Below, in pieces: positions 6,190 to 51,100 of a stretch of DNA of 55,683 nt (the stretch's first letter is position 1; each line of letters opens with the position of its first letter). Source of the stretch: a virus (Duplodnaviria > Caudoviricetes); the IMG/VR virus record IMGVR_UViG_3300047554_000738, positions 1-55,683 of that record; one strand, written 5' to 3'. The position numbers were made by a program, and so were the translations under genes. The notes below the pieces were generated by a model, which saw only the letters and a program-made list of their open reading frames with translations, ran no database searches and was not told the origin of the DNA.

Positions 6190-6479
6190 AAATTCAAGAT
6201 AGTTATGGGTATTGTGAATACGCTTTTGAGCATGATTCGTTTGGTGATTATGTCCATATTTACAATCTTTTTGTTTGTCCTGAGTTCAGAAGGCAAGGGC
6301 ATGCAAAAGACCTATTGCGAACAGCTGTTGGACGAATAAGAGAGACAGGGTATAAAGGTGAGATTCAGATTGTAGCTAAACCCGCCGATGATTCTATCCC
6401 CAAAGAAAAACTACGAGAATTTTATAAAAAAATGGGGCTTGAAGTATTTGACTATTATATGATTGGAGCAAAGCAATGA
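6186..6479 (+). CDS. GNAT family N-acetyltransferase (minimal)
   Basis: Acetyl-CoA motif A LFVCPEFRRQGHAKDLL and C-terminal FYKKMG; TTG start with GGAGGT RBS. Confidence 0.85.
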   Translation: MKIQDSYGYCEYAFEHDSFGDYVHIYNLFVCPEFRRQGHAKDLLRTAVGRIRETGYKGEIQIVAKPADDSIPKEKLREFYKKMGLEVFDYYMIGAKQ

Positions 6480-6775
6480 ATAATGAAATGACAATGCACG
6501 AATTTATAGAGCGAACAGCTTGGGGGCTACGCAAGATGGAATATACGCCAGAATATTTAATAGTTAGAACAGAACAATTTGAACATTGGCAATTTGATAT
6601 GGATAAATTATGCGATATTCCAATTATTAAAGCATCAATGGACTGTGTAGATGGTCATGCGGGACGCAACTATCCTGTATATCCTGCCTTCATAGATATG
6701 CACGAACATGAAATATACAGACAAACATATTTTTTCCAGCGGGGATTTGATGATTATTATTTGGAGCTAAAATGA
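6476..6775 (+). CDS. Hypothetical protein (99 aa, ends LELK)
   Basis: ATGA overlaps at both ends. Confidence 0.75.
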   Translation: MNNEMTMHEFIERTAWGLRKMEYTPEYLIVRTEQFEHWQFDMDKLCDIPIIKASMDCVDGHAGRNYPVYPAFIDMHEHEIYRQTYFFQRGFDDYYLELK

Positions 6776-14991: not shown

Positions 14992-15030
14992 AATATAGTG
15001 TGGTTACCCAACCACGCTATATTTTTTTTT
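14992..15030 (+). terminator. Rho-independent terminator ending the early/replication block
   Basis: AATATAGTGTGGTT-ACCC-AACCACGCTATATT stem followed by T run. Confidence 0.9.
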
Positions 15031-15084: not shown

Positions 15085-17310
15085 ATGACAGAGGAAGTTA
15101 AGAAATATAACAAGTGGTTTACGAGAGCATCTGCTGCAAGAACAGATATGTTCAAAACCCGAAAAGAATGGGAAGAGTTCTACTACAATGATGTGGAAAG
15201 TACCCTAAGCCAATTCACTGCAAATCAATCAAATTCTATAGCTGATTCGTATAATATCCCTATCTCAACCAAGTTATCCTATCCTATCATTGAACAGCTA
15301 ATAAGTTTCTTAACAGGCACTAAACCTTTCCCAAGAATTATAGCTCCTACTGAAGCTACCTCTGATTTCACTTCTACTTATTCAGGAGCGTTCCACGGTA
15401 TATGGTATGAAAGTAAGGGTGATAGAGAACTTAAACTGTGTATAAAAGATGCTTTCGTCACTGGCAGTGGTTTTATCCGAACAAGGAAAGCTAACTTCTT
15501 CAATGAATCTACTTTCAATATACTTATAGAGCATGTCCCATGGAAATGGCTTGTTATTGACCCTCATTCGAAAAAAGAAGATTTCTCCGATGCTGAGTAT
15601 ATTTTTATTTCAAGGAGCATGCTTGTATCCCAAGCAGAGAAGGAATATGATATAAAGATTCCGGAAACTGATTTTGAAGGTACACCGCACAATGTTAACA
15701 CGGATGATTTGGAAACTAACGAAATGACTGAAGGTTATGGGACAATGAAGGATGAGAAATATGTTTCCATCAGGGAATTGTTCTATAAGGAAGATGTCAA
15801 TTTATATATCTCCGAGAATGGAGATATTTCTTTAAAAAGACCAAAATCCATAATGCTGCCTAATCAGGAGAAGGTTAAATTAGGTGAAGCTATAAATCAA
15901 GCAATGCAGGAACTGCAGGAACAGCAGGCAACAGGACAACAGTTAGGACAGTCTAATCAGGATATTGATGCTGAACAATCTCAAATGAAAAGTACACAGC
16001 AATTTACTGAAGATGCTAATGCAAATACTGCTTTAAAAGGAGTTACCGAAGATACGGCAATAGCAACTGCTGACCTTACCAAAGAAATTGAAATGATGAG
16101 ACAGCAGTATTATCAGATGCCTGACGAGATACCCGGTTTCGAAATGGAAATTGAGAACAAAGATATTGAATTTGGAGCAGATGCTCCTAAGAAAGAGAAA
16201 ATCAGAGTTGAAAATATATCTAAAGTCATTAAACGGAGAATCAAGACTGTATTCTTAGTTGGGAACAAAGTGATAGACAGGGATGTTTTGCATATGAACA
16301 AATATCCTATTCATCATTTATCATTCCAACATTATCTATCTCCTAACAGGACTTTTGGTACAATCCACTATATATATGACTTAATCAATGCCCAAAACAA
16401 ATTCTGGTCAATGCTATTATTTGACATGCAGGTAAATAACAACCGAAGAGTTTTGTATCCTCGTGGGGCAATTGCTGATAAGACTGTAGTGGAAAAGGCA
16501 TGGCGACAACCTAATGCTTGGTTAGAGTGGATACCTAATCCGGCATTGCCTGATGCAGGCCGTCCTTCTATCATGGAGCCGTCTCCACTTAATCAAGCCA
16601 CTACTTATGTCATAGAAACACTGAAACAGCTTGTAGAGTACGTAACAGGCATATTTGGGGTAATGCAGGGTGATAGTGCTGCAGCTCCAAACACTATGGG
16701 AGCAACACAGTCATTACAGACATTCGGTTCTCAAAGACCTAAACTATACGCAAGAAGTTTGGAATATGTACTGCAAGACTTAGCTTACACAACTATTTGT
16801 ATGGCACAGGTTTATACCCCAAAAGAGAAAGTTCTCCAATACTTTGATACAAATGGTGACCAGAAGGAAGTTGAGATTATGAATTCAGCAGTCGATATGC
16901 AATTCAAGGTTAGAGTTGATATCGCCAATTCACTTCCTACTGACAGACAGTTATTTGCACAATTACTCAGTATGGTAGCAGGGCAGACCAAAAATCCGTA
17001 TGTAGCTGACTTTCTCACAAAGAATATGCTTAAACAACTTGATATGCCGGAAGCACTTAAAATGGCTGAAGATTTGGACACTATCAAACAACTTGAAGGG
17101 CAACTACAACAATTACAGCAACAGTTGGATGCAGAATCCAAACGTAATAAAGCTTTGGAGAATAACCTATATCAGAAAGACTTATCACATAAAGTTGATT
17201 TGGCTGCTGAGAAAGCAAAAAGTGATGTTGCTATTGAAGAACAAAAAGCTATTGATGAAATTCCCGATTCCGAAACAACCGAAACTGAAAACGATGTCCC
17301 AATACTTTGA
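15085..17310 (+). CDS. Portal protein (podovirus P22/crAss-like type)
   Basis: 741 aa first gene of the head module; DAFVTGSGF, DP...DFSDAEY, YPI, DLINAQNK, VTGIFGVMQG, C-terminal coiled coil. Confidence 0.88.
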   Translation: MTEEVKKYNKWFTRASAARTDMFKTRKEWEEFYYNDVESTLSQFTANQSNSIADSYNIPISTKLSYPIIEQLISFLTGTKPFPRIIAPTEATSDFTSTYSGAFHGIWYESKGDRELKLCIKDAFVTGSGFIRTRKANFFNESTFNILIEHVPWKWLVIDPHSKKEDFSDAEYIFISRSMLVSQAEKEYDIKIPETDFEGTPHNVNTDDLETNEMTEGYGTMKDEKYVSIRELFYKEDVNLYISENGDISLKRPKSIMLPNQEKVKLGEAINQAMQELQEQQATGQQLGQSNQDIDAEQSQMKSTQQFTEDANANTALKGVTEDTAIATADLTKEIEMMRQQYYQMPDEIPGFEMEIENKDIEFGADAPKKEKIRVENISKVIKRRIKTVFLVGNKVIDRDVLHMNKYPIHHLSFQHYLSPNRTFGTIHYIYDLINAQNKFWSMLLFDMQVNNNRRVLYPRGAIADKTVVEKAWRQPNAWLEWIPNPALPDAGRPSIMEPSPLNQATTYVIETLKQLVEYVTGIFGVMQGDSAAAPNTMGATQSLQTFGSQRPKLYARSLEYVLQDLAYTTICMAQVYTPKEKVLQYFDTNGDQKEVEIMNSAVDMQFKVRVDIANSLPTDRQLFAQLLSMVAGQTKNPYVADFLTKNMLKQLDMPEALKMAEDLDTIKQLEGQLQQLQQQLDAESKRNKALENNLYQKDLSHKVDLAAEKAKSDVAIEEQKAIDEIPDSETTETENDVPIL

Positions 17311-17318
17311 AGGTTATA

Positions 17319-18497
17319 ATGGATTTTGACGAAACAACTGGCAGTGAATACGAATATAATGATGCAGAAGAAGATTTCTCATCAGAGTTCGATACTGTAG
17401 ATGATATCTATAATGATAGTTATTCCCAGGATAACGAAATAGAAGATACCACTACTGAAACAGAAGATACTCCCGATACTACGGAGGAGGAGGAGGAAGA
17501 TGTTGATGATGGGAGTGGTTATTATGATGAAGAGGAGAAAGATGATTTTGGGGATGATGATGAAGAAGGAGAGAGTACTGAAGATGGTGAGCAAGAAAAT
17601 AGTGAGCCAAGTGAAGATAGCGATGAAGCTGAAACTGATATAGCTATACCTCCATACTTGCCTGAAGATTTAGTCCCTAAAAAATTCGAGACAGAAGAAG
17701 AAGCGAACAAATTCTACAAAGAGAATTATGGCAAACTTATAGAATACTATACTTCCCAGGAGTTTAATAAACAATTCCTCAACACATTTGAGGATGTACT
17801 GTTAAGTAGAGAACAATATGTCGAGGAGTTAAAAGCAGTGCGTTCCGCTCTTACAGGCGAGAATGCAGAGTTAATGTTGAAGATATATTTCCCCCAGATT
17901 TTGGCTGATTATGGCAAAGCACCACAATTGTCAGATAACGAAATGGCTACCATAGTGCACAACCAATTAGCTAATAAATTCGGTGAGGACTATATGGAGC
18001 GATTTAAGAAAGAGGATTTATTGAAACCTGATAGCATAAGTTCCAAGATACTTCAGTTCGAGCAGGACGTAATCAGACAGGTAAGGGAACATAATGAAAC
18101 GGAATGGAAGAAACAGCAAGAAACAGTGCCACAGGAAAACAATATTAGCGTACCGGAAATTGCAGAACTGTTGGAAAAGCAGTATAAGGAGTATTTCGCT
18201 GAATCGGGCGTAACCGAAGAAGAGTATGGTGACTTCGTACAACAGCTTAGTAACTATCAAATCACCACAAAAGATTTACATAGAGCTATGTACTTTGACG
18301 ACTACATCAATGAGGCTTTTCGACAGGGAATCGAAACAGGTAAGAAAGGTCTTGCAGCAGAAATTACTAAAGCGAACGGTATGCCTTTAAAGCGTGCCGT
18401 ACCCCAACAGGATAAACGGACAAACCGCAACGATGATGCTGAGAATATTTATTTTTCAGATGACAGACTAATAGCCAATGGGGGCTTAATTTATTAA
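17319..18497 (+). CDS. Putative capsid scaffolding/assembly protein
   Basis: Between portal and MCP; extremely acidic low-complexity N-terminus and helical C-terminus. Confidence 0.65.
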   Translation: MDFDETTGSEYEYNDAEEDFSSEFDTVDDIYNDSYSQDNEIEDTTTETEDTPDTTEEEEEDVDDGSGYYDEEEKDDFGDDDEEGESTEDGEQENSEPSEDSDEAETDIAIPPYLPEDLVPKKFETEEEANKFYKENYGKLIEYYTSQEFNKQFLNTFEDVLLSREQYVEELKAVRSALTGENAELMLKIYFPQILADYGKAPQLSDNEMATIVHNQLANKFGEDYMERFKKEDLLKPDSISSKILQFEQDVIRQVREHNETEWKKQQETVPQENNISVPEIAELLEKQYKEYFAESGVTEEEYGDFVQQLSNYQITTKDLHRAMYFDDYINEAFRQGIETGKKGLAAEITKANGMPLKRAVPQQDKRTNRNDDAENIYFSDDRLIANGGLIY

Positions 18498-18516: not shown

Positions 18517-20004
18517 ATGGCAATGACATCGCAAACAACAAGAGAAGGACAAGAAGTCGCTGGTCTCTTCACGTCAGGGCAAATACCTGAAAGACTAATC
18601 AAGAGAGGGATAACTAATCTTGGTAAAATGTCTTTTATTACAAGAGGTATGACTTCATTCAGTTCAATGCTGCACACACGATTCCCTGCCGGAAAGACAG
18701 TGGATACCAGAGAACACAAGGTTTACGAAATCACGGAATTGGACAGAACGTTCATGTGTACCGTAGCTTCGACAGACCCGGGTGCTCCTAATAATGCACA
18801 CGACATATTCGGCATGACTAATGCACAGGCAGCACAATTACAGGCAAACGATATTATATATCGTATCAATGGTTTTGTATTTGTGCAGTCAACAGCAATG
18901 CAAATGGGTCAGGTTATTCCTGGCACACCGGTAACGCTACCTGCCAATTCACCTAATCCGTTAGACCCGGGGATGGGTGGAGACCCGACAGGTATCGTAT
19001 TCAGCAATAACTTTGGTATCGATGCGCAGGGTAATGTATTTGTCGATTACGAGCAGATGCTTATCTTGTCAATCAGTGCACCTAACAGTGCAGGTTTGGG
19101 CCACACCAACGTCAGAGTACAGCGTTGTTTCAAAGGCCCGGGTGGAGCCGATTACGGTGGCCGCATGGTACCACTTGGTTTGGTTAATACAGGTATCAGA
19201 GCAAACGCAGCAGCAGCTACTATCAACGTAGGTGACATTATGCTCCGTGGTGGTTCTGCATGGCGTGAAGGTACCAATGCACCGACAGGATTGACAAAGA
19301 ATCCTGTTATTGATAACAACTTCACACAGGAATTCAAGTATGCAGTTGAAATGACTAAAGAATCAGAGATTGAAGCTTTATGGTCGGACAAGAAACCGCT
19401 TGACATTAATCGTATGTTGCTCCGCAAGAGAATGACAATGGATGTCGAAAGAAAATTCTTGTTCGGGCAGAAAGGCAAATCACTTGACGCACAGGGACGT
19501 GTACTTTATACTATGGGTGGAGTAGTTGAATTTATCAAAAAAGACCCACAGCATATTATTGTAAACACTCAGGGTTTGTCTTATCCTGCATTACTCAATC
19601 TTGGTCCGTCAATATTCGGACTTGGAGGTTCTGCAGAAAGAGATGTCTATGTAGGTTATACTTTGCATTCAAGACTGAAACAACAGTTCTACAACTCAGG
19701 TTTCATGAGAACTAATCCTGAAATGTCAAAGAATTTCAGACTTCAGATTGACACAATCGAAACAACTGGTGGTATCCTCAATATTATTCCATGTTTCTCG
19801 ATGGAAGAAGCAGGATGGGGTACAAGAGGTATTGCACTTGACCCGGGTTATCCTTCATTCATACCTGTAACTCACGAGGGTTGGGATATGAAAATTGAGA
19901 AGGACATTCAGGAAAAGGGAGCTCAGGTTTACAAAGAGCAGGTTGTTGGTATCAAGGGTCTTGAGAGACGTTATTCTCAGTACCATTCAATAATCCAATT
20001 CTAA
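18517..20004 (+). CDS. Major capsid protein (HK97 fold, SU10/DUF5309-like motifs)
   Basis: NFTQEFKYAVEMT, DVERKFLFG, TMGGVVEFI; position after scaffold; strong RBS. Confidence 0.85.
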   Translation: MAMTSQTTREGQEVAGLFTSGQIPERLIKRGITNLGKMSFITRGMTSFSSMLHTRFPAGKTVDTREHKVYEITELDRTFMCTVASTDPGAPNNAHDIFGMTNAQAAQLQANDIIYRINGFVFVQSTAMQMGQVIPGTPVTLPANSPNPLDPGMGGDPTGIVFSNNFGIDAQGNVFVDYEQMLILSISAPNSAGLGHTNVRVQRCFKGPGGADYGGRMVPLGLVNTGIRANAAAATINVGDIMLRGGSAWREGTNAPTGLTKNPVIDNNFTQEFKYAVEMTKESEIEALWSDKKPLDINRMLLRKRMTMDVERKFLFGQKGKSLDAQGRVLYTMGGVVEFIKKDPQHIIVNTQGLSYPALLNLGPSIFGLGGSAERDVYVGYTLHSRLKQQFYNSGFMRTNPEMSKNFRLQIDTIETTGGILNIIPCFSMEEAGWGTRGIALDPGYPSFIPVTHEGWDMKIEKDIQEKGAQVYKEQVVGIKGLERRYSQYHSIIQF

Positions 20005-20015
20005 GTGGAGGTAAC

Positions 20016-20540
20016 ATGAAAAAACTAACATTAATCGCAGTATTCGTATTGTCGTCTTTGATGGCATTGTCACAGATACCTAACTATAGATATGATGTGG
20101 ACGTATTGTTAGACAGGACAGACCGTTTCAGTGCTGCAGGAGATACTACAAGAAGCGACAGAGATACTATTTTCTTTGTTTCTGATGTATTCACAACCGA
20201 CGCTTGTGACAGCTTGTTCTTCGCTTGGGAACTCAAAGGAGACTCTACTCTGATAGGAACACCGAAAGACAGTTTTATCGTTTATCTGAGGATTCAGTGG
20301 GTTAGTCCTTCTAACTGGACAAATACAGGCACAGCTTTAACAGAAACTGTATTCGCTACACAGGATAGCGTATTTCTTAAAGCAAAGACACTCACAGGTA
20401 ATTATATAACCGCTAAGGCACCTGCCACATATAATGGCATGAAAACAAAGGCAAAAGTTTGGGTTAGGATTGTAAATGTCCGAACTGTAGCACAAGCAGG
20501 AAGTATAAAAGTATATGCTATAAAGAGATGGGTTGATTAG
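20016..20540 (+). CDS. Secreted beta-rich protein with Sec signal peptide (capsid module)
   Basis: MKKLTLIAVFVLSSLMALS|Q; six D-(S/T) motifs. Confidence 0.8.
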   Translation: MKKLTLIAVFVLSSLMALSQIPNYRYDVDVLLDRTDRFSAAGDTTRSDRDTIFFVSDVFTTDACDSLFFAWELKGDSTLIGTPKDSFIVYLRIQWVSPSNWTNTGTALTETVFATQDSVFLKAKTLTGNYITAKAPATYNGMKTKAKVWVRIVNVRTVAQAGSIKVYAIKRWVD

Positions 20541-20548
20541 GAGGTAAT

Positions 20549-20968
20549 ATGAAAAAACTTCTTATCATACTGGCTTTAATAGCGATACCAATAATTGCAG
20601 GAACTCCTACAAGGTCGTTACTTTACTCCTATTCGAAAGCATTAGGAGCAGGCAGTAGCGATACCACTGCAATCAGTAATATCCAATTAGAAGGCGATTC
20701 TGTGGGTATTATGGTAGAAATCAGTCAGGACAGCATATCAGGTAAAATTGTTTACGAGTACACAACTCCAAATGGTTACACAGATGGTACAGCATTTGGT
20801 TCATTGGCTTCTATAAAGACAATATCCAATAACGAGAAAGGTGTGTTCACTTCAAAGATACCTAATATAGCAGGAGCCGAAAAAGTCAGGATATATCTAA
20901 TATCCAAGAACAACAAAACGGCTTTGCAGACAATTAACTATTATGTTTACAAAATTAAATGGAGATAA
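20549..20968 (+). CDS. Secreted beta-rich protein with Sec signal peptide, paralog of 20016..20540
   Basis: MKKLLIILALIAIPIIA|G; shared DSxxxxxExxxDS and NxxTxxQ...VYxIK patterns. Confidence 0.8.
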   Translation: MKKLLIILALIAIPIIAGTPTRSLLYSYSKALGAGSSDTTAISNIQLEGDSVGIMVEISQDSISGKIVYEYTTPNGYTDGTAFGSLASIKTISNNEKGVFTSKIPNIAGAEKVRIYLISKNNKTALQTINYYVYKIKWR

Positions 20969-20970
20969 CT

Positions 20971-21333
20971 ATGTTTGGTGGATTATTCAGACTGGTAAAT
21001 TACGAGAACAGATGGGGCGAAGGGCCTGGTGACAAAATTGCTATTCTAAGGGACGTGGCACTCGATGCCAATGGTCAGGCAATTATTGATTTAACCGGAC
21101 TTGTAAAACCCGGAGCACAAGTTGACTATGTCTTGTTTTCGAGAACGAATGTAGCAGGTACAGACAGCTTGACATTCGGTACAGCAGGAATTGCTTACGG
21201 CATTGGGGATATCGGAGTTTCTTTGACAGCAGTCGCAGTATCCGGTAATGAACCTGCAGTAGTAATACCTGCAGCAAGTCAGACGGTTTTGTGCTTAATC
21301 ATCATTGATGCTACCGATATTGCGGAAGCGTAA
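20971..21333 (+). CDS. Putative capsid decoration/structural protein
   Basis: Small Gly/Ala/Val-rich beta protein in head module; GGAG RBS before ATG 20971. Confidence 0.55.
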   Translation: MFGGLFRLVNYENRWGEGPGDKIAILRDVALDANGQAIIDLTGLVKPGAQVDYVLFSRTNVAGTDSLTFGTAGIAYGIGDIGVSLTAVAVSGNEPAVVIPAASQTVLCLIIIDATDIAEA

Positions 21334-23063: not shown

Positions 23064-23299
23064 TGGAGCATTGTAAGTTCTTTATCAGCGAGAAATGCAG
23101 ATGTAAAGCAAAACAGAGAGAAGTATTCGGAATAATCCCTGACAGTATTAAGAGAAAAGGGATGAAATATAGCAAGATGTGTAAGAAATGTGAATATAGG
23201 CAAGAACATGACAGCAGCAGAACTAAACCAAGCGATAATCAGCAGAGCGAATTCTTATATCGGGCAGAAGGAAAAGTCGAGGAACTCCGGCTTTTTTGA
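23063..23299 (+). CDS. Small basic Cys-rich protein
   Basis: GGAG RBS, TAATG coupling; C..C.C...CKKC; overlaps endolysin start. Confidence 0.45.
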   Translation: MEHCKFFISEKCRCKAKQREVFGIIPDSIKRKGMKYSKMCKKCEYRQEHDSSRTKPSDNQQSEFLYRAEGKVEELRLF

Positions 23300-23735
23300 C
23301 GAAGATTTCGAGATGAAAATGAAACAGGCAGGATGGGTAAAAGGGTATCCATGGTGCGCTTCTTTTGTAAGACTTGTTTACATAGAAATCATATCAGAGT
23401 TATTCCCTGGCAGGAAAGATTTGATAGATTTCTTGAAAAGGAATTTAAAGCATGGTGTTCTACTGACTTACAAGAATTTAAAAACAGACAACCTGTTTTT
23501 CGAAGTGGTTGATGAAATAGTTCCGGGTGGCATTGTGTTTTACAAGACATCAGAAGCACACGGTCACACAGGCATAGCAAAAGAGGTTATATCAAAAACC
23601 ACGTTTAAATCAATTGAGGGCAACACAAATGCTCAAGGCAGTAGAGAAGGCGAATACGTAGCAGAAAAGCTCAGGACGGTCACGCAAAGGGCTAATTGGG
23701 TGTTTTTAGGATGTGCCAAGCTAAAAGGATTGTAA
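23208..23735 (+). CDS. CHAP/NlpC-P60-type peptidoglycan hydrolase (endolysin)
   Basis: YPWCASFV (catalytic Cys), GHTGIA (His), SIEGNTN..GSREG. Confidence 0.88.
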   Translation: MTAAELNQAIISRANSYIGQKEKSRNSGFFDEDFEMKMKQAGWVKGYPWCASFVRLVYIEIISELFPGRKDLIDFLKRNLKHGVLLTYKNLKTDNLFFEVVDEIVPGGIVFYKTSEAHGHTGIAKEVISKTTFKSIEGNTNAQGSREGEYVAEKLRTVTQRANWVFLGCAKLKGL

Positions 23736-35166: not shown

Positions 35167-35469
35167 ATGGAAAAAGAGACAACAGACTTAATAGCAATAA
35201 TCGCAGGATTAGTTGGCATAGGTGGTGGTATATTTATGACTGTAATAAAGATACAGATTGCTGCTATGTTCAAGAAGTTCGAAACACTATGGGATACCCA
35301 AATTGGTCAAACAAAAGATATCAAACAAAATACTAAAGAAATAGGTTTGTTATGGGCAAAGACAAATGCACATGAAAAGCATTTAGCCAAACATGACAAT
35401 GAACTAAATTCTATAAAGACAATGCACGATATTACTCACCCTGATAAACCAATACCGTCATATGATTGA
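35167..35469 (+). CDS. Single-TM coiled-coil protein (holin/XhlA-like)
   Basis: N-terminal TM LIAIIAGLVGIGGGIFMTVI followed by a helical region. Confidence 0.5.
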   Translation: MEKETTDLIAIIAGLVGIGGGIFMTVIKIQIAAMFKKFETLWDTQIGQTKDIKQNTKEIGLLWAKTNAHEKHLAKHDNELNSIKTMHDITHPDKPIPSYD

Positions 35470-39148: not shown

Positions 39149-42100
39149 ATGCACCAAATGGCAGACTATGATGATAAGTTGAAACAACCTTCTCAGGAAT
39201 CTTTACTACTCGGTCAGAAACTTGCTAAAACAGGTGGTACTACTGCAGGGCCGTTTGGCCTGTCTTATGATATGATGCACCCGATACGGCCTGAACCTGT
39301 CGCCCCTAAGAAATTCGATAAGGAAATCAATGACTTACTTAGCAATACTGTTAAATTCAGAAAAGATAAAGCAGGACTTAAGTGGCAATACACCTTAGAC
39401 CCAAAAGAGATTGAAGCTTCTGAAAAGATGCTTGATATGTATTGGCAGGATAAACTCACAGAATTTGGCAAGAAAGGTGGTTATGCTAAGGATATCAGAG
39501 AAGGTGGTACTTATTCTGCATTGCATGAAACAAGAGGATTCTTCTCAGGCTTGGCTGAGTTCTTTACAGACCCTATAACAGCAATAGCGAGGACACAAAC
39601 CGGCACGTTCCATGAAAACAGTGAAATGAAAGAGATAAGAGAATTTACTAAAGCATGGATGGCAGCTAAGGAAGATTTGAATGCTCTCAAATTGAAATAT
39701 AGAACTGAAGATTCCTACCGTAAACCTGTAGCCGAACAAACTAAGTTTTTACAGAATCAAATAGCAGGGACAGGCCACGATTCGAAAGCTATGACCGATT
39801 ACAAACCTGATGAATGGAAACCGAAGGAACCGAAACCTGCTTATGATGTTGATTATGATTATGATGCTGCTGATGTAACTGAGTTGTATGTGAATAAAGC
39901 TGCGAAAGGTGCTTTGGTAGGCATAGCTGAAGGAGTGTTGAGAACCAATATCGTAGGCAATACAAGTGGTGTTGAAATGCAAGACCACTTAGCAAGATTT
40001 GTCCAAGCAAGTCAGGATGGGATTGATTCCGAAAAAGCAAAAGAAATAGCAGGATATATCCAAAACAGGTCTGAACAGGGTGGAGCTATCCAGGATGTAG
40101 CTATCAAGACTATTGGTGATTTGGTAGAAATGACAAGTTCTATGTATTCCCCTGTTGGTGGTTTTGCATTAGGAACAAAAGCTTTCAATGCAGCATATCA
40201 GGCAGCTAAGGCATCTAAGTTTGCAAGGATATTGAGAGCTGTGGATGCAGGGAAATTGACTAAGATGAATCCTGAGTTTAGAAAAAGATATGAAATATTT
40301 AACAAGATATTAAACCCGAAAGCAAGTGCTCCTGTGAACGGTAGTTATATACTGCCGAAAGTGTCTGACATGATTGGGACTAAAAGCGAATATATCGGCA
40401 GATTGGTAGCTTCAAGTTTTGTTGACCAGATGCTGACAGCAGACCATAAACTAACACCTGATGAAGTTATAGAGAACTTAAAGAACATGACAATATTAGG
40501 TGGTATGAACTATGCCTTCTCGAAAGCTTTTATGAAAGGTGCACAACATTTGTTACTCACAAAGACTTTGGCAGGGACTAAGATAGGTGGCTTGGCTCAG
40601 AAACAGTTGAACACTACTGCTGCTGCTATGGTAGGAATAGGACAGTTGGTAGCTCAACCTGCACAGAGTTTGGTACTAAACAGTCTTGATGGCAGGGATA
40701 TAACAGCAGAACAATTTGTTGCTGATATGATTATGGGTTTGGGTATGTCTTATGGTGATTTCTATAAGACAGCACAAGCAAAGGGTGATTCGTGGAAAGT
40801 CAAGAAGTTCGATGAAATCCTGAAAGAGAATTATGACGAAATGGGTTTTGTCCCGAATGTCCCTATAAAAGACCAGACTAACCGTCAGGAAAGTATGGAA
40901 CAGCAAAGTAAGGTTATTGAAGAAGTTGTTAAAACAACTCAGGAACAGAACCCTACCAAGGTAGTTAGAACTGTTCAAGGTACAAAAGATGGACAAGCAG
41001 GAACTATTATTATAGGAAAACAGACTTATGGTCAGGAATTAGTTGGTGAAACAAGAAAAAGATTAGGTCTCAAAGAAGATGAAGCTATAACCGGTAAACA
41101 TTTAATAGATGCTTTCAGTGATGATTTCAAGAAGTCAAGAGTTAAGAAAACTATATTCTCGTTAATCGGGAAGATAGCACCTGATGTCAAGGTAGAATTG
41201 TCGGAGGATATAAATGCACCTGCTGCTTACAAAGACGGTGTGTTGTATCTGAATAATAAAGATGCTTACACACTCAAAAAGGGTGGTATCGGCAAAGCTG
41301 CTACTGTCACTATTGCTCACGAGTTAGTACATGGTTTAGTAGAAGAAAGACTGAAGAATGACGAAGTGTTTGGCAAGAAGATGTATGATATATACTATAA
41401 ATTCAAAGAGAAAGCATCCAATTGGTTAGAGCATCATCCTGACGCTTTTAATTCTATGTCGGAGACTCAAAAAGAAATGATAATGAAGATATTGGGCAAC
41501 ACTTATGAAACAACTGATGAATCAGGGCAGGTAATAAGAGAGATTGATGATGAAGTAAACTTGAATGAACTAATAGCTATCATGTACGAACCTTCAACTG
41601 CTGCCAATACAGTTCGGAAGTTTTTGTACACGGTTGACCCTTCTTTAAAGAATGATATATTAAGCAAGATAGGTGGAGCACTAGGTATTGAATCGGATTT
41701 ATTCAAAGAGATTGATAATGTAATAGTCAATTCAGAAAAGACTTTAATCAATGACAGGCCTGAAGCTTACAAACTATCTGAAGCAAAAGAACCGACAGCA
41801 CTCCCGGGTGAACAAGACCTATATGATGAAGAAGGGGATATGCTCGGCAGTAACGATGATTACGACAGTCCTTTTGAAATGTCCAAAATGTCCATTACGG
41901 AAGCTATGGACTTTATGAGTGCTGAAGAGAATTTCACAAAAGTTGCTGAAGTAAAGAAGGCATTAACAACTGAAGTAGAAGAAGAAAATATAACTGAATC
42001 AAGGAACAGGGATTTTGAAGTTGAGGTTAAGGTTAATTCTCTCAAAAGAAGGTTAGAAGTTGCAACTGATGAAAGACTTGATAAATTGTTAGCATCCACT

Positions 42101-45100
42101 GATGATGAAATTAAGCAGCATATTGCCAAATATGTCCAAGATGCAACTGAACAGCAGAACACTTTTAGAAAAATCAAGAATCTCCGTAAAGTAGAATCAC
42201 TTGGTATAAATGTTACTTTAAGTAAAAAGAAAGGTATTTCAGTAACAAAGGTAGCTCCTATTAACGGGATGACACCTAAAAACAGGCCTGTAAAGGGTTA
42301 TACAGGTAAACAGGTATATTTAGATAAGGGACTGGCTTTAATGGCCGTAGAAGCGACAGGAAGTGGCTTATTTAATGGCATAGGGTTGAATACCTTAGCA
42401 GAATTGGCTAATCCTGACAATATCACTCTAATTGAAGGTTATTATCCAAGTAGTACAAAGAAGGTAGGTGATAATTTTGTTACAAGTCCGATTAAAAACA
42501 AAATATCAGATAAACTTGACCCGAACATATTCGCAACTACTGATTTAGGTGGGAAGTTACTTGCTCAGGGTTATTTCCTTATGCCGAAAGTTAAGGGACA
42601 GAGAGCTATTAAATTGCCAGGGATAGCTGAAACGTTAAAAGACCGCAGGAACTTTGTAACCGGTATTGATAATTTCTTTATTAAGAAGATGCTTGTGAAC
42701 GAAGCTACTTATGATTACAATTATGAGAAAGCTACACAGATTAAATCGTTCATGGAGAATTTCGATTCAGGGAAGTTACTAAAAGTCATAACAAATAAGA
42801 TAAATGCCGAAATGGAAGGCAGGGAACTCCCTTTCTATGTAAAAGACATAATCAAAGACGGTGAAACTCCCGAGAAGATAACAGCACTCACCAAGCAGGC
42901 AGAAGCTTTTAAACCGATGATGGATGAAATCAAACAGATAGTCAAGAAATATTACACAGACAATACAGGCAAAATAAGACTACCTGAATGGGTTAATGAA
43001 AAATCTGCTATTCCTGACCAAGCTGTTTACGATAGATTAGTGAGAGTTATTTACGGTTTGACTGACAATGGTTTCAAAACTTCATGGAACAAAGTTGACA
43101 GTAAAGAAGTCACTCCTGTCAAATCTACTGATAAGTATTTGAACATATTGACTGCAGACCATTATAACAGATTAGGGGATATGGGACAATTAGCTGACTT
43201 AGCAGGGGATATCCGGCTTGAGACTGGCGGCTATGACACAGACCATATGAAGCAGAAATATGGCATGGATGTGAACTCCGATGGAGATGGTGTATTAAGG
43301 ACATTAAGTGTATCTGATGATTATTTAAAAGATAACTTAGGTTTCTCAGATGAAGATATTGCAGAATATACACGGTTTATTACAATGTTTTCTGAACAGG
43401 AAACTGATGGTGTGCTAATGTCACTTAATGACAATACATATAGTTTGTTAGCCAAGACACTCGGAATTAAAGAAGATGCATGGCAGAAAGTACCCGGGTT
43501 GAAACCGAAAGGTGTTGAATTTAACAATGGGAATGTTCGCATAACAAAAGGTATGTTATGGAATATTAACAATATGAAAGATATTGCAAACCGTAATCCA
43601 TGGTTAGCTAAGATTATACAAGCTGCTAAGGATAATAACATAGCAGTCCTTTATATGCCAACTGCAAGTAAAGGTAAACATACTGCAAAAGTTAAGTTTG
43701 TCGATATTGATGAAAAAACAAGAGCAGTTGTGGATAATGACAATACTCTGTTGTCAGTTGAAATCAAATCAGGGGATAAATGGAAAACTGACCCTGATGT
43801 CACAAAAGCTTATAAATCAGAATTTGCATTAGGGTTTATGAACGGCATTGTTCCTGAATGGGCAATAGGGCATATGAAGATAACAGGTGATGATGCTCTG
43901 ACTTTTGAGAATTATGTGCATGGTTCCGATATTGCATTAGGAGCTAATGGATTTGAAACAATCTTAGCCACTCAAAGAACGAGTAATTTATTTGCAGGAG
44001 AACAAGGGCAGAAGGTATATGATATTTTACAGAATCACATAAACTACAATATCCAAAAGAGTTCAGGTAAAATCAAAGATATCATGTTATCATCTGAAAT
44101 CGGAGCAAGAATGATGCAGGGTATTGGCAAACTTAAACCTGATTTCAAAGTGACTGCTGCCGAGCATAAAGCACTTGGCAGTTTTGTGCAACAGGCACTC
44201 GACTATTTCGAAAGACAAATTGATGCTGACAGGACAGATGATACTATCCATACTTACGGTGAAAATGCTTACGTCCTATACGACAGGTTATCACAAATGG
44301 TAGATAGCAGAGGGAATTTTCTTCTGAACAAACTACCTTTACTGATTACAATGAACAATATACTCGCAGGCAGGACTTTGACCGAAGGCAACAATAGTTT
44401 GGGTGCAACTTTAATGAGATACGCTGTTGAGGACATGATAAAAGGTAGAGTGCCTGTAATGGCTTCCAAGATAATGCCTGACTTCAACGCAGAATCTGCT
44501 GTAATCTATACTATCAACAAGATTGCACAGGATAGGTTAGATGAAGCGATGAACAAGGATATTGATGCAAGAGACCAGAATGGCAGGATTATATGGAATT
44601 CTCAAAAACAACAATTATACCGTGACCTTGTTAAAATGGAACTTGGTTCTATGTATGGCATCGAAAACTATGACGAGCATGTAGAAGTTTACGGCATAGC
44701 TAATAAAGGCACAACCGAGATAGAAGGTTTTGAAGTAGCGAAGGAAGTAAAAGCTTTAACTGCTTCAATATTGACACCAAAAGAGAGGTTAGACTTACTC
44801 GGCAGCAAGTTCATTGACGAGAATGGCAAATTGCGTAATCGTGGTGTGATACTTGGTAGAGATAATTACGAAAAGGAAATTAAGTATAGACAAAAAATGC
44901 ACAGATTATATCCTGACAAAGGGTTTGATAAACCGTTAATGCCAGGCGATAAAATGCTATTTGTCAAGATACCTTCTGATGACTATACCAATACTTTGAT
45001 GCCTTTATACTTTGCAGGAGTGACCGAGCAGGAGGGTGTGGTTATAACTGAAAGTGGTATTATCAAGTTTACAGGAGGTGATTTTGACGGTGACGGAATA

Positions 45101-48100
45101 ACTAAGTTTATGGTTGACGAGAATCTCACATTTGAACAATACGAAGAAGTATTTGACCATTTGTTGTCTTTGCAACCTGAAATTCAGAATGGCAAGAATT
45201 TAGCCAACGACCTGAAAAAGATGTGCTATACCAAAATAGGTAACGAAAGGATGATAAACCGTTATCTCGGAGTACCATTTAAGGACGACAACAACAGCCC
45301 TCAATTTGCAGGATTAGGCAGGAGATTAGCAGGGCATCAGGTAGGACAAGACCAAGGTATTGTCGTAATAAACAATATTGCGAGAGCGTTCCAACAGATA
45401 AATAATGATATATCCGCAGGCAAAGCATCTGATGTTATAACCAAGAATGAACTTATAGATATGCTTCCTGAAGGATTTGAATTTGGGAATATCCCTGGAT
45501 TCGAATCACTGCAGGGTATCAAAATGAATATAGATATAGAAACAGTGAAATCAGCTATATTCTCATTTCTCAAGCAGACTTATGTTGATACTTATGAAAT
45601 GGTGCCTTTGGACAGGTATCAGGGTGTTATTGCAGGGTTAGTGAATGATTTCGAGTTAGTGTACGATGAATCAAGGAATGTTAACCAAGATGGATTCCCT
45701 GAAAGACTTTCATTATTCCATTTAGGAGGTGAGTTTAATCCTACGATGGAGAAACCTGCTGACTTTGACAAGTTAACAATGATGAATCCGAACTACAAAG
45801 GCCAGGAACTGAAGTTAATGTTAGGCGAAGCTATCTTAAAGCACATGTTCAGTATAGCAGGTATTAATTATAAATCATTGGACAAGGTAGAAAATCCGCA
45901 TGAGATGATAGACAAAGTAATGGAAACTACCAAGGTGGAGAATCCGGGGAATACTTATACAAGAACATTAGAAGCTGTAAGGGATATTCTAAGAGACGAA
46001 ACTGTAAAAAAACCGGAACTACCTCCAATTGATGTACCATTAGAAACTGACGTGTTTATGGAGAGAACTACTCCACAAGCAGAACAACCTAAACCTATTG
46101 AACCGGTAGAGGAAGTTACCAAACCTGAACAGGAGATGACAGAAACTCAACCACAAGAACCGGAAGCAATTGCTAAGGTAGGAGAAGAACCTGCAAAACC
46201 TGAATTTGTCCCAACAGCAGGGAAGATGCTAGAATCTCTTAAAGTACCTATGGGAGCTCAATATGGTATATTGCAAGGGTTAAAGAAGAGATACCAAAGA
46301 GCATCAAAGTTAATTTGGGGAAACACTATGTCGGGTGAGGTTTATGACCAAATCCGCAATAGTGATTTAACTAATAATGGCATGTATAATGAGGACGATG
46401 TGGTAGGCATGTATCCTGATTTCTTGTCTGAACCTGACTGGATAGAAATTGACAAAGCTATTGCAGGGAATGTCAAAGGGTTTATATTAAAGACCGAGAA
46501 TAAGAAACATAACAGTAAGGAAACATTGCCTTTATATACAGCGATGCAGATAGCAGATTATTTACAAGAGAACGGTTATACCAGATGGACAAACAAGAAA
46601 GGTGAATTAACGGACAATTATGTTAGAAAAGACATTTTAAAGCCTTCTACAGAGACTTTTACTCAAGAGGTGGCTTCTGATATGCCTGAGCAGATAAAAA
46701 CGCGACAGGAAGCTTCTACTGAGGTTAAATCTGCAATACCGTCACTCAAAGATATCAAGATTGACACAAGTAAGGCAAAAGGTGCAGGTGCTATTGCAAA
46801 AGCTGTTGCTGATATGAAATCTCCTGTCGGAGTAATTAACGGTGGCTCTTATATCAAGACTAAGGTTAACAGTGAAGGGGTATATGAGGATGATGCTAAC
46901 CTTATGGCTCAGATTAGAGAGAAATACCCTGATGCTATTGTAGTTAAAGAAGCTATGGAACCGACCGAAATAGACAAATTACGTGACAGGACTTTTGTCG
47001 TATTCAACAAAACAGGCAATAAAGCAAATGTCAACTATCTCGCTAAGAACAAATACGATTATGTAATTGCTGGGTATGAAGATGTTGGTTTCTCTCTTGG
47101 CGGAGAATCTTATCCTTCCTCTAACGGTCTTGAAATTGCATCAACTATATTAAGGTCCGAGATAGCTAATGAAGTGCAAAGTTTAGTAGGAACTAAACTT
47201 AGGGATATCCTTAACAAACAAATTGTTAATGGGACTATGGCTAAATACAGTTTTGATGATTTCTACGAATCGAAAATAAAGAACAAGAAAGGTTATTCAG
47301 TTAGAGGGCCGATTGAACTTGTCCAGGGTTTGATATCGAACATTATGTACGGTGGTAAGCCGACTGCTTCAGAAAATGCTTTATCACCTTTCGAGATTAA
47401 AACGGAAGATGGCAAAATAAAGAACAAAGATTTTCTCAAAACTTTGACTGAATTTAAAGATACTGAAGGTCATTATTTGTTTGCTCAGGACAGGTACATA
47501 CCATTCAAAATAGCTGCAGGTACTGTATTGAAACACATGATTGACAACAATGTACCAAGACTTGGGGATTATGTATTAAGAAGCAGCAACGATATAGCTA
47601 CTTTGCTATATTCTGATGGTGTTATATCAGATAACCAAGGGAATAGTACAACACTTGAAAATGTATTTGCAGAGAATGGCGAACTGCAAGCTGCATGGAT
47701 ACCTGCCGAGTTCTTGCAAAGTCCTGATTTCAGAGATTTGATTACATTCAATAAAGGTATAGATGCGAGAGAACTCGAATTACTCAAATCTAAAGTGTTA
47801 GTTAATATAACAGATTCGATGCACAGTATATTATCAAACTTTGGTGTCAATATTGACAAGGGACTTCTTTACACTGCCAATGCTTTTTATGAAGTCCAAA
47901 GAGATAAGGCATTTAGAGAGAAAAATCTGTATAAGGGTAGTTTAGCTAATATGCGTGGTACTCACATGGCAGACCCGAAATGGAACTATGCTTATGAAAC
48001 AGGACAATGGCTTACTAAAACTCACTTAGGAGGTAAGACAAGCGAAGATATCATGCGAGAGCATGGTAGTAAGTTTCTTAACGAGCATTCTGATACTAAT

Positions 48101-51100
48101 ATATGGCAACTAATCAAAAGTGCAAGAGACGCAGGTATTATTCCGAAAGTTGCTAATGATGTTACATTGGAAGACTTTATGATTGACAAGCTGAACAAAA
48201 AGGGTGAAAGTATAGGGTTAGAAATGTCAGCTTCTTCTATTGAAGATGTGTCATGGAAGGATAAATCAGTGAAAGACTTTTTCCGGACTATCCGTGAACA
48301 TGCGGCTAAATCATCTAATCAGAAAATATTAGATGCTGTTAATAAGCCAATGTCAGAATGGGACAATGAAACTATGATGGCAATTAGCAGAGAGATTATA
48401 AAACCATATCTTGAAAAGGTACTGCCACCATTAGCATTAGGTACAGGTAAAGGGACTATCGAAGAAGCACAAAGCTGGTCTGATTATACAATTCAGAAAC
48501 TCATGGCAGGGTTCATGCCGGGTAATTCGGGTTATATGAATAAACTTGAAGCTATGTATGATAAAATATCAGGCGAGAATTCACATAGCAGAACAATTGC
48601 CAGAAACTTTATGAATCAAAACTATCTTGCATCAATAGCTGAACTAATCTTAGAATTAAGAAAGACTAAATCAGGAACTTGGTGGAGCAATATCAAAATA
48701 TGGGGTTCTAAGTTACCTACTGAGATGTTGAAGAGACATAGTATGAACAAACAGGTCTTCAATGCTACTGATGAGATTATGGATATTCCTGAAGTAGTTA
48801 ATGGCGAAGCAGGGCAGGTTGATACAATCAGATTGAAAGATGAAGCCGATTGGGAATTGGGAGTGCAATTACCTTATGTTTTGTTGCCTAAACAGTATCC
48901 AATGATATTGGCAGCTACAAGATTGACTAAATTGAAGAACAATCTTGCAGCAGAAACTAACAGGATTAAAGAGGATTTCGAAAGTATAGAGAATAATACC
49001 GATACTGAAATTGCTTCAGGTATCGAAAGTTTGGATAATGTAATTATCGCTAAGAACAAAGGGTTTGATGAATATACGCAATCGGATGTTGTTGACCCGG
49101 GTAATTTATTAGATGAGATTAAATTCCAGACCAAAACTAAGAACGGTGTTGTGCAGGATGGTAAGGTTACATTCAATATCCGTAAACCTGAGAATAAGGT
49201 TGAATCTATTATATTCGATGTCCAGAATGATGCTGATTTGAGAGATGGTATAAATACTTTCCTCAATAGTTGGAATGCTAATGTTGACCCGACTATAAAG
49301 ACTAAGTTATTCAATTATATCAAATATAAGACTGCATTAGAGAATTATCGTAACATGCTTGTCAGTTATACTAAAGCTATCGAGAGTTTTGCTAATAGGT
49401 ACAAAAATGGTAGAATAGATGGTACAGGTATCAATGCCAAGGATAATTTGCAGAGACTTAACAGTTTTATAGCGAAGATGGGCAAATTGAATCCGACTGA
49501 AGTGGCTATGATGACAAGAGATATCAGAGATGATGTTGACATGAGTGATGCTGTCCAATATTTCCAGGACAATTTTATAACTCCTAATGAAGAATCGTTT
49601 ATTGAGCAAAGGAACATTCAATTTGAATTCAACTCGAAACTGAGAGAGAAGTACAAGAATTACAGCAGAGTGAAGAAAGGAAGAACAGGGCAGGGTGATT
49701 TCATGGGCTCTATCCGTACTGAAATCAAGAAGTTATTAGCAGGAGAAACTAAACAGAATGCAACTGCCGGTGAAGCTATTGTATCTGAAAATGACAGGTA
49801 TGAGATAGACAGACAAATTAAAGCAGGGACCGGTTCAACTTATGTATTAAGCAGATGGGGAGAACAGATAGCAAGTATTATTTCCGAGAATATTAATGGT
49901 ACTGGTTTAATAGTAGGCAAAGATGCAAACGGCAAAGCAGTAACCAAGGCGTTGACAAGTGCGGAACAGAAACAATTGTTCAATGAAGTCTTATCTGATG
50001 TCCGGAATCTTATTGATGAATTCTACAAAGGGGATAATGCTTATTACGATTTATTCCGTAAACTCGGGATTAAAGGTTATGACCAAGCGTTACATTATAT
50101 CAAAACTGCTAAGGAGTGGGATGCCGTTCTGAATGCACGTAGAGAAATTAGCAAAGCAGTCAAGAATCAAATGCACAAATTAGCAAAGGATGCTCAGGTT
50201 AATTACTTTAATCAGTTTGTTGCAAGTAAAGATGTGACCGAAGATATTAGAGCACATTATAACTTCACAGAACTCTTCCAGAAGGTGTTTGCGGACAAAA
50301 CCGATGCAGAGGGTAGGGTAGTGGATAAATTCTTTACTACAAGGCTGGATAAGGCCTCAAATGACATTGATTGGGTTATGACCAATTCATTAATTGATTT
50401 GAACAATACCATGCTCCACAATTATCTTGAATTTGATAGGGAAACAAGCAAAATAGCCGATATGAATACAATCTCTGTATTGACCAATACAATTGGTATG
50501 CCTTACAAATATGGGCAGGAATTGCCGATTGGACAGTTTAATGATGAATTCAAAGCTACTGAACTTACTGAACCGGGTAGTTATTATATACCATCTGACT
50601 TGAAAGTAGGGGATATCGTTACTATGAGATTAAAGGATAACAAGACATTCACTGCGAGACTATTATGTGGTGTAAAATGTAAAGAGAATGTATTAAACAA
50701 GGATACCAAGAAAGCAGAGGTACGTGATGTGCCTTATTATGTGTTCAGCAACGATATAAACAATTCACCGAATCAATCATTTATAGCTGCGGATATGATA
50801 GCCACTATGAGAAAAGGTGAATCACCTGATTGGACATTAAATGCAGTCCAGGGAAGAATGCGGCATCATATCCAAAATTCTATATCTGATATGGCGGAAG
50901 AGTTTAAACATTATATAACACAGCGAGTTAACGATAAAGGCAGGACAGACAACATAGCACAAAGACGTGCTTCTAATAAGACTATCCATTATATCCAGGA
51001 CTTTAACAATGATAAGAGCGTGGCTAAATTTGTCAGATGGGGACAGAAAGTAGCGGATGCAGGGCAGGTAGGTTTATACTATCTCAGAGCAAGACACATA

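Follow-up and report, generated by a model that had tools for sequence, protein, structure and literature searches.

Among the accessory head proteins of tailed phages are the decoration or cement proteins, such as gpD of lambda, Soc and Hoc of T4, and Dec of phage L. To our knowledge, none of the known decoration proteins has a signal peptide, and all of them bind heads in the cytoplasm. The present study deals with two adjacent open reading frames (ORFs), A and B, of an uncultured short-tailed phage (Duplodnaviria; Caudoviricetes) deposited as IMG/VR record IMGVR_UViG_3300047554_000738. The complete virus record of 55,683 bp (CheckV 100%), with nearly all genes on the + strand, was analysed and is referred to as the window. 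ORF A (20016–20540, + strand, 174 aa) and ORF B (20549–20968, + strand, 139 aa) are an A-type and a B-type member of the same jelly-roll family. They are similar to decoration proteins in being small, beta-rich and accessory, with a gene adjoining the major capsid gene, 0–2 copies per genome and dispensability in some lineages, but they bear a predicted export signal, which does not agree with the cytoplasmic synthesis of that class, and they have no sequence similarity to it.

Phage-encoded proteins with Sec signals and an action in the envelope are also known, including Spackle and Imm of T4, Llp of T5, Bor of lambda and XepA of PBSX. These are early, lysogenic or lysis-cassette genes and several of the products are lipoproteins, whereas A and B are placed in the head operon, have no lipobox and show no sequence similarity to any of them. 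Tailed-phage capsids bearing sugar are found in the glycosylated mycobacteriophages, where glycosylation of the capsid takes place in the cytoplasm. The target there is believed to be the capsid protein itself, modified by glycosyltransferases of the phage, as stated in an excerpt of PMC11256854. In the reading favoured below, by contrast, the periplasmic system of the host would modify a separate exported protein; no glycosyltransferase was detected in Pfam scans of 30 of the larger window ORFs.

The substrates of the general O-glycosylation system of Bacteroidota, as portrayed in parts of PMC12871550 and PMC8729774, share with A and B a signal peptide, the lack of cytoplasmic retention features and the motif D-(S/T)-(A/I/L/V/M/T) with the same third-residue preference. 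In addition, A has Gln at position +1, as most signal peptidase I (SPI) substrates of this phylum. A and B differ from these substrates in being phage-encoded and in having three almost invariant sites. Their motif load is also far higher, with 3–5 sites in 120–155 residues, compared with the 257 sites in 145 glycoproteins given for Porphyromonas gingivalis in an extract of PMC8729774.

Cellulophaga phage phi18:3 (NC_021794) provides a further comparison. Its proteins gp085, gp086 and gp087 (L027, 4892–10584) are annotated in the GenBank record as virion/tail proteins "based on experimental MS/MS proteomics". They are late proteins whose signal-like N-termini are followed by Gln, and thus signal-bearing proteins can occur in the particles of a Bacteroidota phage. 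Unlike A and B, they are of fibre/tail type, with 547–785 aa, and do not adjoin the capsid gene; the two groups are not homologous. On the basis of the data described below, A and B are best interpreted as exported, glycosylated accessory capsid proteins, a reading to which a probability of about 0.4 is assigned.

Signal-like N-termini and sugar-attachment motifs

Judged from their sequences, A and B combine a Sec/SPI-type signal with three D-(S/T)-hydrophobic triplets that are conserved in the family, plus variable extra triplets. An N-terminal hydrophobic, signal-like segment was found only in A and B among the 69 ORFs of at least 40 aa in the window. In both proteins this is the single hydrophobic segment, with no second stretch, and there is no Cys near the predicted cleavage site. 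Cleavage sites were assigned by inspection and with a crude home-made scorer, not with SignalP. The common start of the two proteins is GGAGGTAA(C/T)ATGAAAAAACT, and both show the Sec/SPI layout of a basic n-region, an h-region of about 7–15 residues, small residues at -3/-1 and no lipobox Cys. The predicted signal peptide of A, residues 1–19 (20016–20072, + strand), has two Lys, a hydrophobic stretch, small residues at -3/-1 and Gln at +1, so that cleavage would expose Gln20. The predicted signal peptide of B, residues 1–17 (20549–20599, + strand), has a hydrophobic stretch of about 14 residues (counted on the translation) and is followed by Gly-Thr-Pro, without Gln. The first-pass annotation, which was made from the letters alone, had placed both genes in the decoration-protein slot after the capsid gene, with a shared start and with signal peptides lacking a lipobox and any further transmembrane helix; A and B indeed directly follow the SU10-like capsid gene, and the N-termini quoted were correct.

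Gln at +1 was present in A and in 10 of 14 distinct slot proteins (those encoded directly after the capsid gene) when read by eye. The crude scorer placed it in 22 of 69 family members, and several more have a Gln site a few residues further on. It was missing in B and in the B-type relatives examined, which have Gly, Ser, Thr or Ala instead, and by our reading the Gln-bearing members are mostly not B-type. Many B-type relatives (P0004–P0054) have a small residue and then (T/S)-Pro after the hydrophobic stretch, a second style of signal end within the family. The Gln at +1 of the slot proteins fits the Q-rule of Bacteroidetes and a secretion of Bacteroidota type. In a portion of Bochtler et al. 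(PMC5837995), mean Q-values of 71% are given for Bacteroidetes and of less than 9% for most Chlorobi, and high values were also obtained for Ignavibacterium album (77%) and Chloroherpeton (55%). From the N-terminal layout, export of A and B is considered likely, and both proteins probably work outside the cytoplasm.

Three other assignments were tried for the pair and rejected. Lipoproteins were ruled out by the absence of Cys at the cleavage site, and a spanin pair by the absence of a lipobox Cys together with the model of B, which is all-beta, and the lower-confidence model of A, which is nearly so. A moron gene was ruled out since there is no own promoter or terminator and the GC content matches that of the neighbours. 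No Pfam match to a type IX secretion system C-terminal domain was obtained for A or B.

In A and B together, Ser or Thr comes directly after 9 of the 18 Asp residues; in the remaining 65 ORFs this holds for 106 of 1156 (Fisher p 1.4e-5). Eight of the nine triplets, five in A and three in B, are canonical and all of these are located beyond the signal peptide; DSF fits only the extended motif D(S/T)(A/I/L/V/M/T/S/G/F/C) reported in parts of PMC12871550 and PMC8729774. The canonical motif occurs 8 times in the 313 aa of A and B and 31 times in the 17,851 aa of the other ORFs, a 15-fold difference in density (2.56 vs 0.17 per 100 aa; binomial p 1e-7), and A and B rank first and second among 67 ORFs. 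Shuffling of their own residues gave p values of 0.005 for A and 0.002 for B. The count of nine among 18 Asp residues and the triplets listed in the first-pass annotation were therefore exact, and the enrichment that it had suspected was found.

In A, the three family sites are DTI (Asp50, 20163–20171), DSL (Asp65, 20208–20216) and DSF (Asp85, 20268–20276), and the extra sequons are DTT (Asp43, 20142–20150), DST (Asp76, 20241–20249) and DSV (Asp117, 20364–20372), all on the + strand. The Phe of the third site restricts it to the extended motif, and its Asp is invariant in the 17-row alignment of slot proteins. In B, also on the + strand, site 1 is DTT (Asp38, 20660–20668), at the start of strand 2 of the structural model, site 2 is DSV (Asp50, 20696–20704), at the loop-to-strand-3 junction, and site 3 is DSI (Asp61, 20729–20737), at the loop-to-strand-4 junction; at sites 2 and 3 both Asp and Ser are invariant in 24 B-type rows. 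In the profile comparison, Asp50 of A was aligned with Asp38 of B, and Asp65 of A with Asp50 of B. The DSSP string of the B model placed the three sites at the loop-to-strand junctions opening strands 2, 3 and 4.

Within the family, D[ST] was present at sites 1, 2 and 3 in 56, 68 and 63 of 70 relatives, respectively. The third residue of 263 D[ST] triplets was V in 65, L in 55, I in 51, T in 42, A in 15, C in 15, S in 10, F in 1, Y in 1 and W in none. This usage matches the glycoproteomic preference, in which L/I/V/T/A/S make up about 90% and G/F/C are occasional (sections of PMC12871550 and PMC8729774). Outside the three sites, 60 canonical motifs were counted in 9947 aa, distributed over 17 alignment columns, compared with 24.1 expected by shuffling. 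The slot protein ranked first in motif density in 17 of 17 related loci, with 61 motifs in 3142 aa of slot proteins vs 122 in 46,442 aa of other ORFs. According to an excerpt of PMC12871550, occupancy of the motifs in exported proteins is close to complete, and motifs introduced by engineering acquire glycans as well. Glycosylation of A and B by the host's O-glycosylation system is plausible, depends on the host, and is given slightly better than even odds.

In the proposed mechanism, A and B would be transcribed and translated with the capsid gene block, late in infection, and would then be exported by Sec and cleaved by SPI, A exposing Gln20, which a Q-rule host would cyclise. The general O-glycosylation system of the host would modify both proteins in the periplasm at D-(S/T)-hydrophobic triplets, and the product would be a protease-resistant, sugar-bearing extracytoplasmic protein in capsid-like amounts. 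This accessory capsid protein would have access to finished particles only once cytoplasm and periplasm are joined by holin lesions or lysis. Attachment of A and B to the virion, as a coat, is regarded as less likely than not. More doubtful is the complete picture of capsids that gain a sugar coat outside the cytoplasm, in which an exported jelly-roll protein, glycosylated at three sites, would dock on finished heads and the virion would wear the species-specific glycan of its host. The observations of the first-pass annotation were thus confirmed, and its interpretation is partly supported: the signal-like N-termini, the homology of the two genes, the conserved slot and the positionally conserved motif enrichment were borne out and extended, and host glycosylation with loading onto virions at lysis stays a proposal.

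If A and B are exported and glycosylated, they would constitute a clean and compact case of a phage using the periplasmic glycosylation of its host, with three fixed sites in about 120 residues. Should the particles carry them as well, the maturation of a tailed-phage head would take place in part outside the cytoplasm, that part bearing glycans of host type, which would be relevant to sticking to mucus or polysaccharide, to evading recognition and to the reading of viromes. The family is a small one with a confident fold, and both export and glycosylation could be examined in Bacteroides or Flavobacterium without a cultured member of the clade.

Conservation of the slot and fold of the family

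Relatives were obtained by searching viral contigs with the capsid protein, which yielded 18 loci with 43–78% identity. A signal-bearing ORF of 149–183 aa starts about 11–26 nt after the match of the capsid gene in 17 of these 18 contigs. The 17 slot-bearing loci represent about 10 distinct lineages, several being near-duplicates; loci and alignment rows are related, and counts over them are not independent. The slot holds two copies in L001 and L016, as in the window, and none in L018; variation between 0 and 2 copies is in keeping with an accessory head protein. In all 18 loci an ORF of 92–126 aa comes next, after the slot gene or, in L018, after the capsid gene. In L018, whose capsid protein is 44% identical, this conserved small ORF (6293–6600) directly follows the capsid gene.

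All slot proteins could be aligned with one another (17-row alignment). The closest relatives of A were P0002 (84% identity) and then the first slot gene of L001 (46–49%). Identity was 13–49% in the slot family and 43–78% in the capsid protein, indicating that the slot family evolves much faster. The first-pass annotation had suggested from short shared motifs that A and B are paralogues. Pairwise BLASTP gave a weak match (23% identity, E 0.01), and the profile-profile comparison of A-type (14 rows) and B-type (24 rows) alignments gave 99.2% with E 1.6e-19, a score inflated somewhat by the signal peptides kept in most rows. The mature parts of A and B align across all three conserved motifs; by these comparisons the two proteins are homologous, and paralogues.

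A profile trimmed of the signal was searched against 1.84 billion representative proteins and gave 65 matches at E<=1e-3, of which 36 were at <=1e-10. Nearly all matches are 135–193 aa long, with the exception of an 83-aa fragment and of the weak match P0062 (2588 aa), in which residues 2506–2549 match profile positions 21–56 (E 3.1e-4), the region of the first two motifs. The matches mostly begin near residue 20, after Lys/Arg and a hydrophobic N-terminus of about 20 residues, and a signal-like N-terminus is present in nearly all 69 listed members, the exceptions being P0040 (probably truncated) and P0064. Because a profile without signals could not select for signals, the N-terminal signal is conserved in the family rather than a matter of chance in two ORFs. 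What the first-pass annotation noted for two genes extends in this way to an entire family. The mature proteins of the family have about 120–155 aa.

The neighbours of B in the ESM Atlas were "hypothetical protein" clusters, 91–98% viral; no cellular homologue was found, and on this evidence the family is phage-only. No PHROG family was matched at E<=0.1 by A or B, and no Pfam family by A; B gave only a sub-threshold match to Catalase_C (E 0.036, 14.1 bits vs a cut-off of 24.6 bits). In searches of phage records, the terminase retrieved only N4-like and other distant matches with 21–25% identity, and the DnaB-like helicase four distant matches. The capsid alignment matched 43 pattern stretches in 185,579 species genomes, none of which was confirmed as a relative, and a scan of viral contigs with the B-type alignment found nothing beyond the contig of L001.

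Mature B (residues 18–139) was modelled with AlphaFold2 from a 70-row alignment as an eight-strand beta sandwich, with a predicted local distance difference test score (pLDDT) of 96.5 and a predicted template modelling score of 0.87, in accordance with the beta-sandwich fold proposed in the first-pass annotation. The model of A, from 14 sequences, had a pLDDT of 61.7 and was not used for fold searches. Foldseek searches of PDB and BFVD and a wide VIA-align search with the B model retrieved only generic jelly-rolls, with template modelling (TM) scores up to about 0.55. Among them were PirA, YPM, GOLD domains, GH2 sugar-binding domains, carbohydrate-binding modules, viral capsid jelly-rolls, the lysozyme inhibitor PliG (4dxz), the N-terminal domain of XepA (6i56; Z 9.3, one of many tied matches) and the trimeric cement protein of Helicobacter pylori phage KHP40 (7dou), the last being weak (TM 0.40) and no better than dozens of other jelly-rolls. 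As only tied, generic jelly-roll matches were obtained, the fold assigns no function. A prediction of the complex of capsid protein and mature B, run without controls, had a score of 0.00 and carries no weight for or against.

Host signals and alternative explanations

The first-pass annotation had assumed a host in Bacteroidota, and this assumption was weakened, with evidence on both sides. On the positive side are the Gln at +1 and the cousins of the phage endolysin in metagenome-assembled genomes (MAGs): an alignment of the CHAP-type hydrolase from four cousin loci matched contigs of a Sphingobacteriales MAG and a Bacteroidales MAG with 35–39% identity, the former in a prophage-like setting. 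The Sphingobacteriales contig (L022, 942–5628) contains a phage block of another kind, with protease/scaffold fusion, capsid-like and sheath-like ORFs according to their translations. On the negative side, 46 of the 67 window ORFs have a Shine-Dalgarno (SD) core within 20 nt upstream (background 15%). Counted in the same way, the figures were 5/46 in Bacteroides phage B40-8, 4/65 in Flavobacterium phage 11b, 8/45 in crAss001 and 4/40 in Cellulophaga phage phi18:3, so that these four cultured phages of Bacteroidia are at or below background. The ribosomes of Bacteroidia are described as blind to SD in parts of PMC13000457 and PMC9976891, and an extract of PMC10798248 gives the lowest SD usage for Bacteroidia, Verrucomicrobiales and Cyanobiaceae.

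SD use was also checked within the phylum, in an even sample of 151 genomes, by comparing AGGAGG-N4-8-ATG with a reversed control. This pattern was at least 3-fold over the control in 17 of 151 genomes, with a highest excess of 88 per Mb; in the window the excess was 144 per Mb (10 vs 2 matches). With a clear SD-ATG excess in 17 of the 151 genomes, SD use is compatible with a host in the phylum Bacteroidota. The Q-rule and SD signals would be reconciled by a lineage, within the phylum or among its relatives, that uses SD; a section of PMC12871550 reports enrichment of the sugar-attachment motif in almost every family of the phylum (GTDB), as well as in Fibrobacterota. Either the host is an SD-using lineage with secretion of Bacteroidota type, or the phage needs ribosomes with a free anti-SD. 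The combination of Q-rule signals and heavy SD use thus flags a host group still to be named, or an unusual translation strategy. The motif TANNTTTG, which we take to be the Bacteroidota -7 promoter motif, was not enriched in the window (61 found vs 62.5 expected), and neither tRNA genes nor a bS21 homologue were found in the window.

Besides the SD sites, several other points weigh against exported, glycosylated capsid proteins. Tailed-phage heads assemble in the cytoplasm, and the literature searched offered no route for adding a periplasmic protein to them, nor any tailed-phage head protein reported to be exported or to be glycosylated by the host. L018 does without a slot gene. tblastn of the capsid protein, portal, A and B against 50,697 phage records found no relative. 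The top rows of the fold searches are tied at Z 9.7–9.0 over unrelated families, with 35 chains at Z >=8. The signal-bearing virion proteins gp085–087 of phi18:3 are motif-poor, with one motif each vs about three expected by shuffling (0.13–0.18 per 100 aa). Two Asp residues are near-invariant in a family of 18% mean identity, which exceeds the usual conservation of glycosylation sites and is compatible, too, with a role in structure or ligand binding where strands 2–4 begin, and in a host without the O-glycosylation system the motif would mean something else. The head-operon position, the tight coupling and the 0–2 copies nevertheless speak for an accessory head protein, and the gene position, together with the signal-bearing virion proteins of phi18:3, keeps virion loading alive.

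The same signal and motif evidence would serve an effector that acts late in the periplasm or envelope and that is exported and glycosylated without ever entering the particle; this reading needs no new assembly route and is judged possible, if rather unlikely. Such an effector might mask or block a receptor or a DNA-entry route, sparing the loss of progeny on the dying cell and debris, or might act in superinfection exclusion or in lysis modulation, e.g. through attachment to a wall hydrolase. Some phages are known to encode periplasmic proteins with a signal (T4 Spackle and Imm, T5 Llp, PBSX XepA), the slot family diverges more rapidly than the capsid protein, in the manner of host-interaction proteins, L018 is without the gene, and the XepA N-terminal domain and PliG are among the many tied fold matches. 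These matches are, however, non-specific (Z about 9 to 9.7), the known examples are early or moron genes and are not known from head operons, and about 10 lineages have kept the gene in one slot, after the capsid gene and before the next head/neck gene, with 8–11 nt gaps and an overlap. Considered unlikely is that the triplets are structural or ligand-binding features, such as strand caps or a metal or sugar site, of an ordinary secreted phage protein in an SD-using, non-glycosylating host. The position of the three sites, the most conserved residues of the family, at the junctions opening strands 2, 3 and 4 agrees with this, as do the lack of enrichment of TANNTTTG and the heavy SD use, which argues against Bacteroidia hosts. 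It does not account for the 2.5-fold enrichment of the motif outside the three sites, in 17 alignment columns, for aromatics at the third position in only 2 of 263 triplets despite the aromatic-rich strands of the family, or for the frequent Gln at +1; further points against it are the enrichment in nearly every family of the phylum and in Fibrobacterota (same section of PMC12871550), the high Q-values of Ignavibacterium and Chloroherpeton (PMC5837995, as above) and the 17 of 151 genomes with SD-ATG excess.

Very unlikely, finally, is a hydrophobic N-terminus that is not an export signal and that serves as an inner-membrane tether or is removed at head maturation, A and B being then conventional cytoplasmic decoration or assembly proteins. 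This would suit a gene within the head block and would remove the topological problem, and the B-type proteins, without Gln, keep a small residue and (T/S)-Pro after the hydrophobic stretch. Nevertheless, a membrane anchor would be expected to be longer than the stretch of about 14 residues in B, Lys/Arg before this stretch and small -3/-1 residues after it form the classical Sec/SPI layout, no prohead protease was found in Pfam and PHROG scans of the head-block ORFs, and the motif enrichment would be left unexplained.

Head gene block and other features of the window

A terminator-like hairpin of 14 pairs followed by a T run (14992–15023, + strand), the best terminator-like site of the region, is located just 5' of the portal gene and is probably where the replication module gives way to the structural one. 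The P22-like portal gene (15085–17310) is followed by an acidic scaffold-like ORF (17307–18497) and by the gene of the SU10-like major capsid protein, of the HK97 fold family (18517–20004, + strand; Pfam SU10_MCP 3.9e-19; PHROG 1328 major head protein 7e-11). The gap between the capsid gene and A is 11 nt and that between A and B is 8 nt. The ribosome-binding sites of both genes are strong, the SD-like sequence GGAGGT being read at 20007–20012 (+ strand) for A and at 20540–20545 (+ strand) for B, where it overlaps the stop codon of A. The gene after B (20959–21333, + strand, 124 aa) has no family match and overlaps the end of B by 10 nt. No convincing + strand terminator was found between the portal gene and the ORF at 20959.

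A CHAP-type wall hydrolase (23190–23735, + strand; Pfam 1.4e-5; PHROG endolysin 1.8e-9) is encoded four genes after B, inside the head/neck block. This position is kept in relatives (L002, L004, L005, L010, L011, L013 and L017). The ESM Atlas record starts the enzyme at residue 7, and its neighbours there are viral clusters. It could be a virion-borne hydrolase rather than a lysis enzyme. An ORF of 100 aa in which a hydrophobic segment starts at residue 7 (35167–35469, + strand) is a holin-like candidate located far from the CHAP gene, and no spanin-like pair was seen in the window. A single ORF of 4520 aa (39149–52711, + strand) occupies a quarter of the genome. It matched no Pfam family at E<=0.01, and nine other ORFs scanned likewise gave nothing useful; given the distant N4-like relatives of the terminase, it may be a virion RNA polymerase or an ejection giant.

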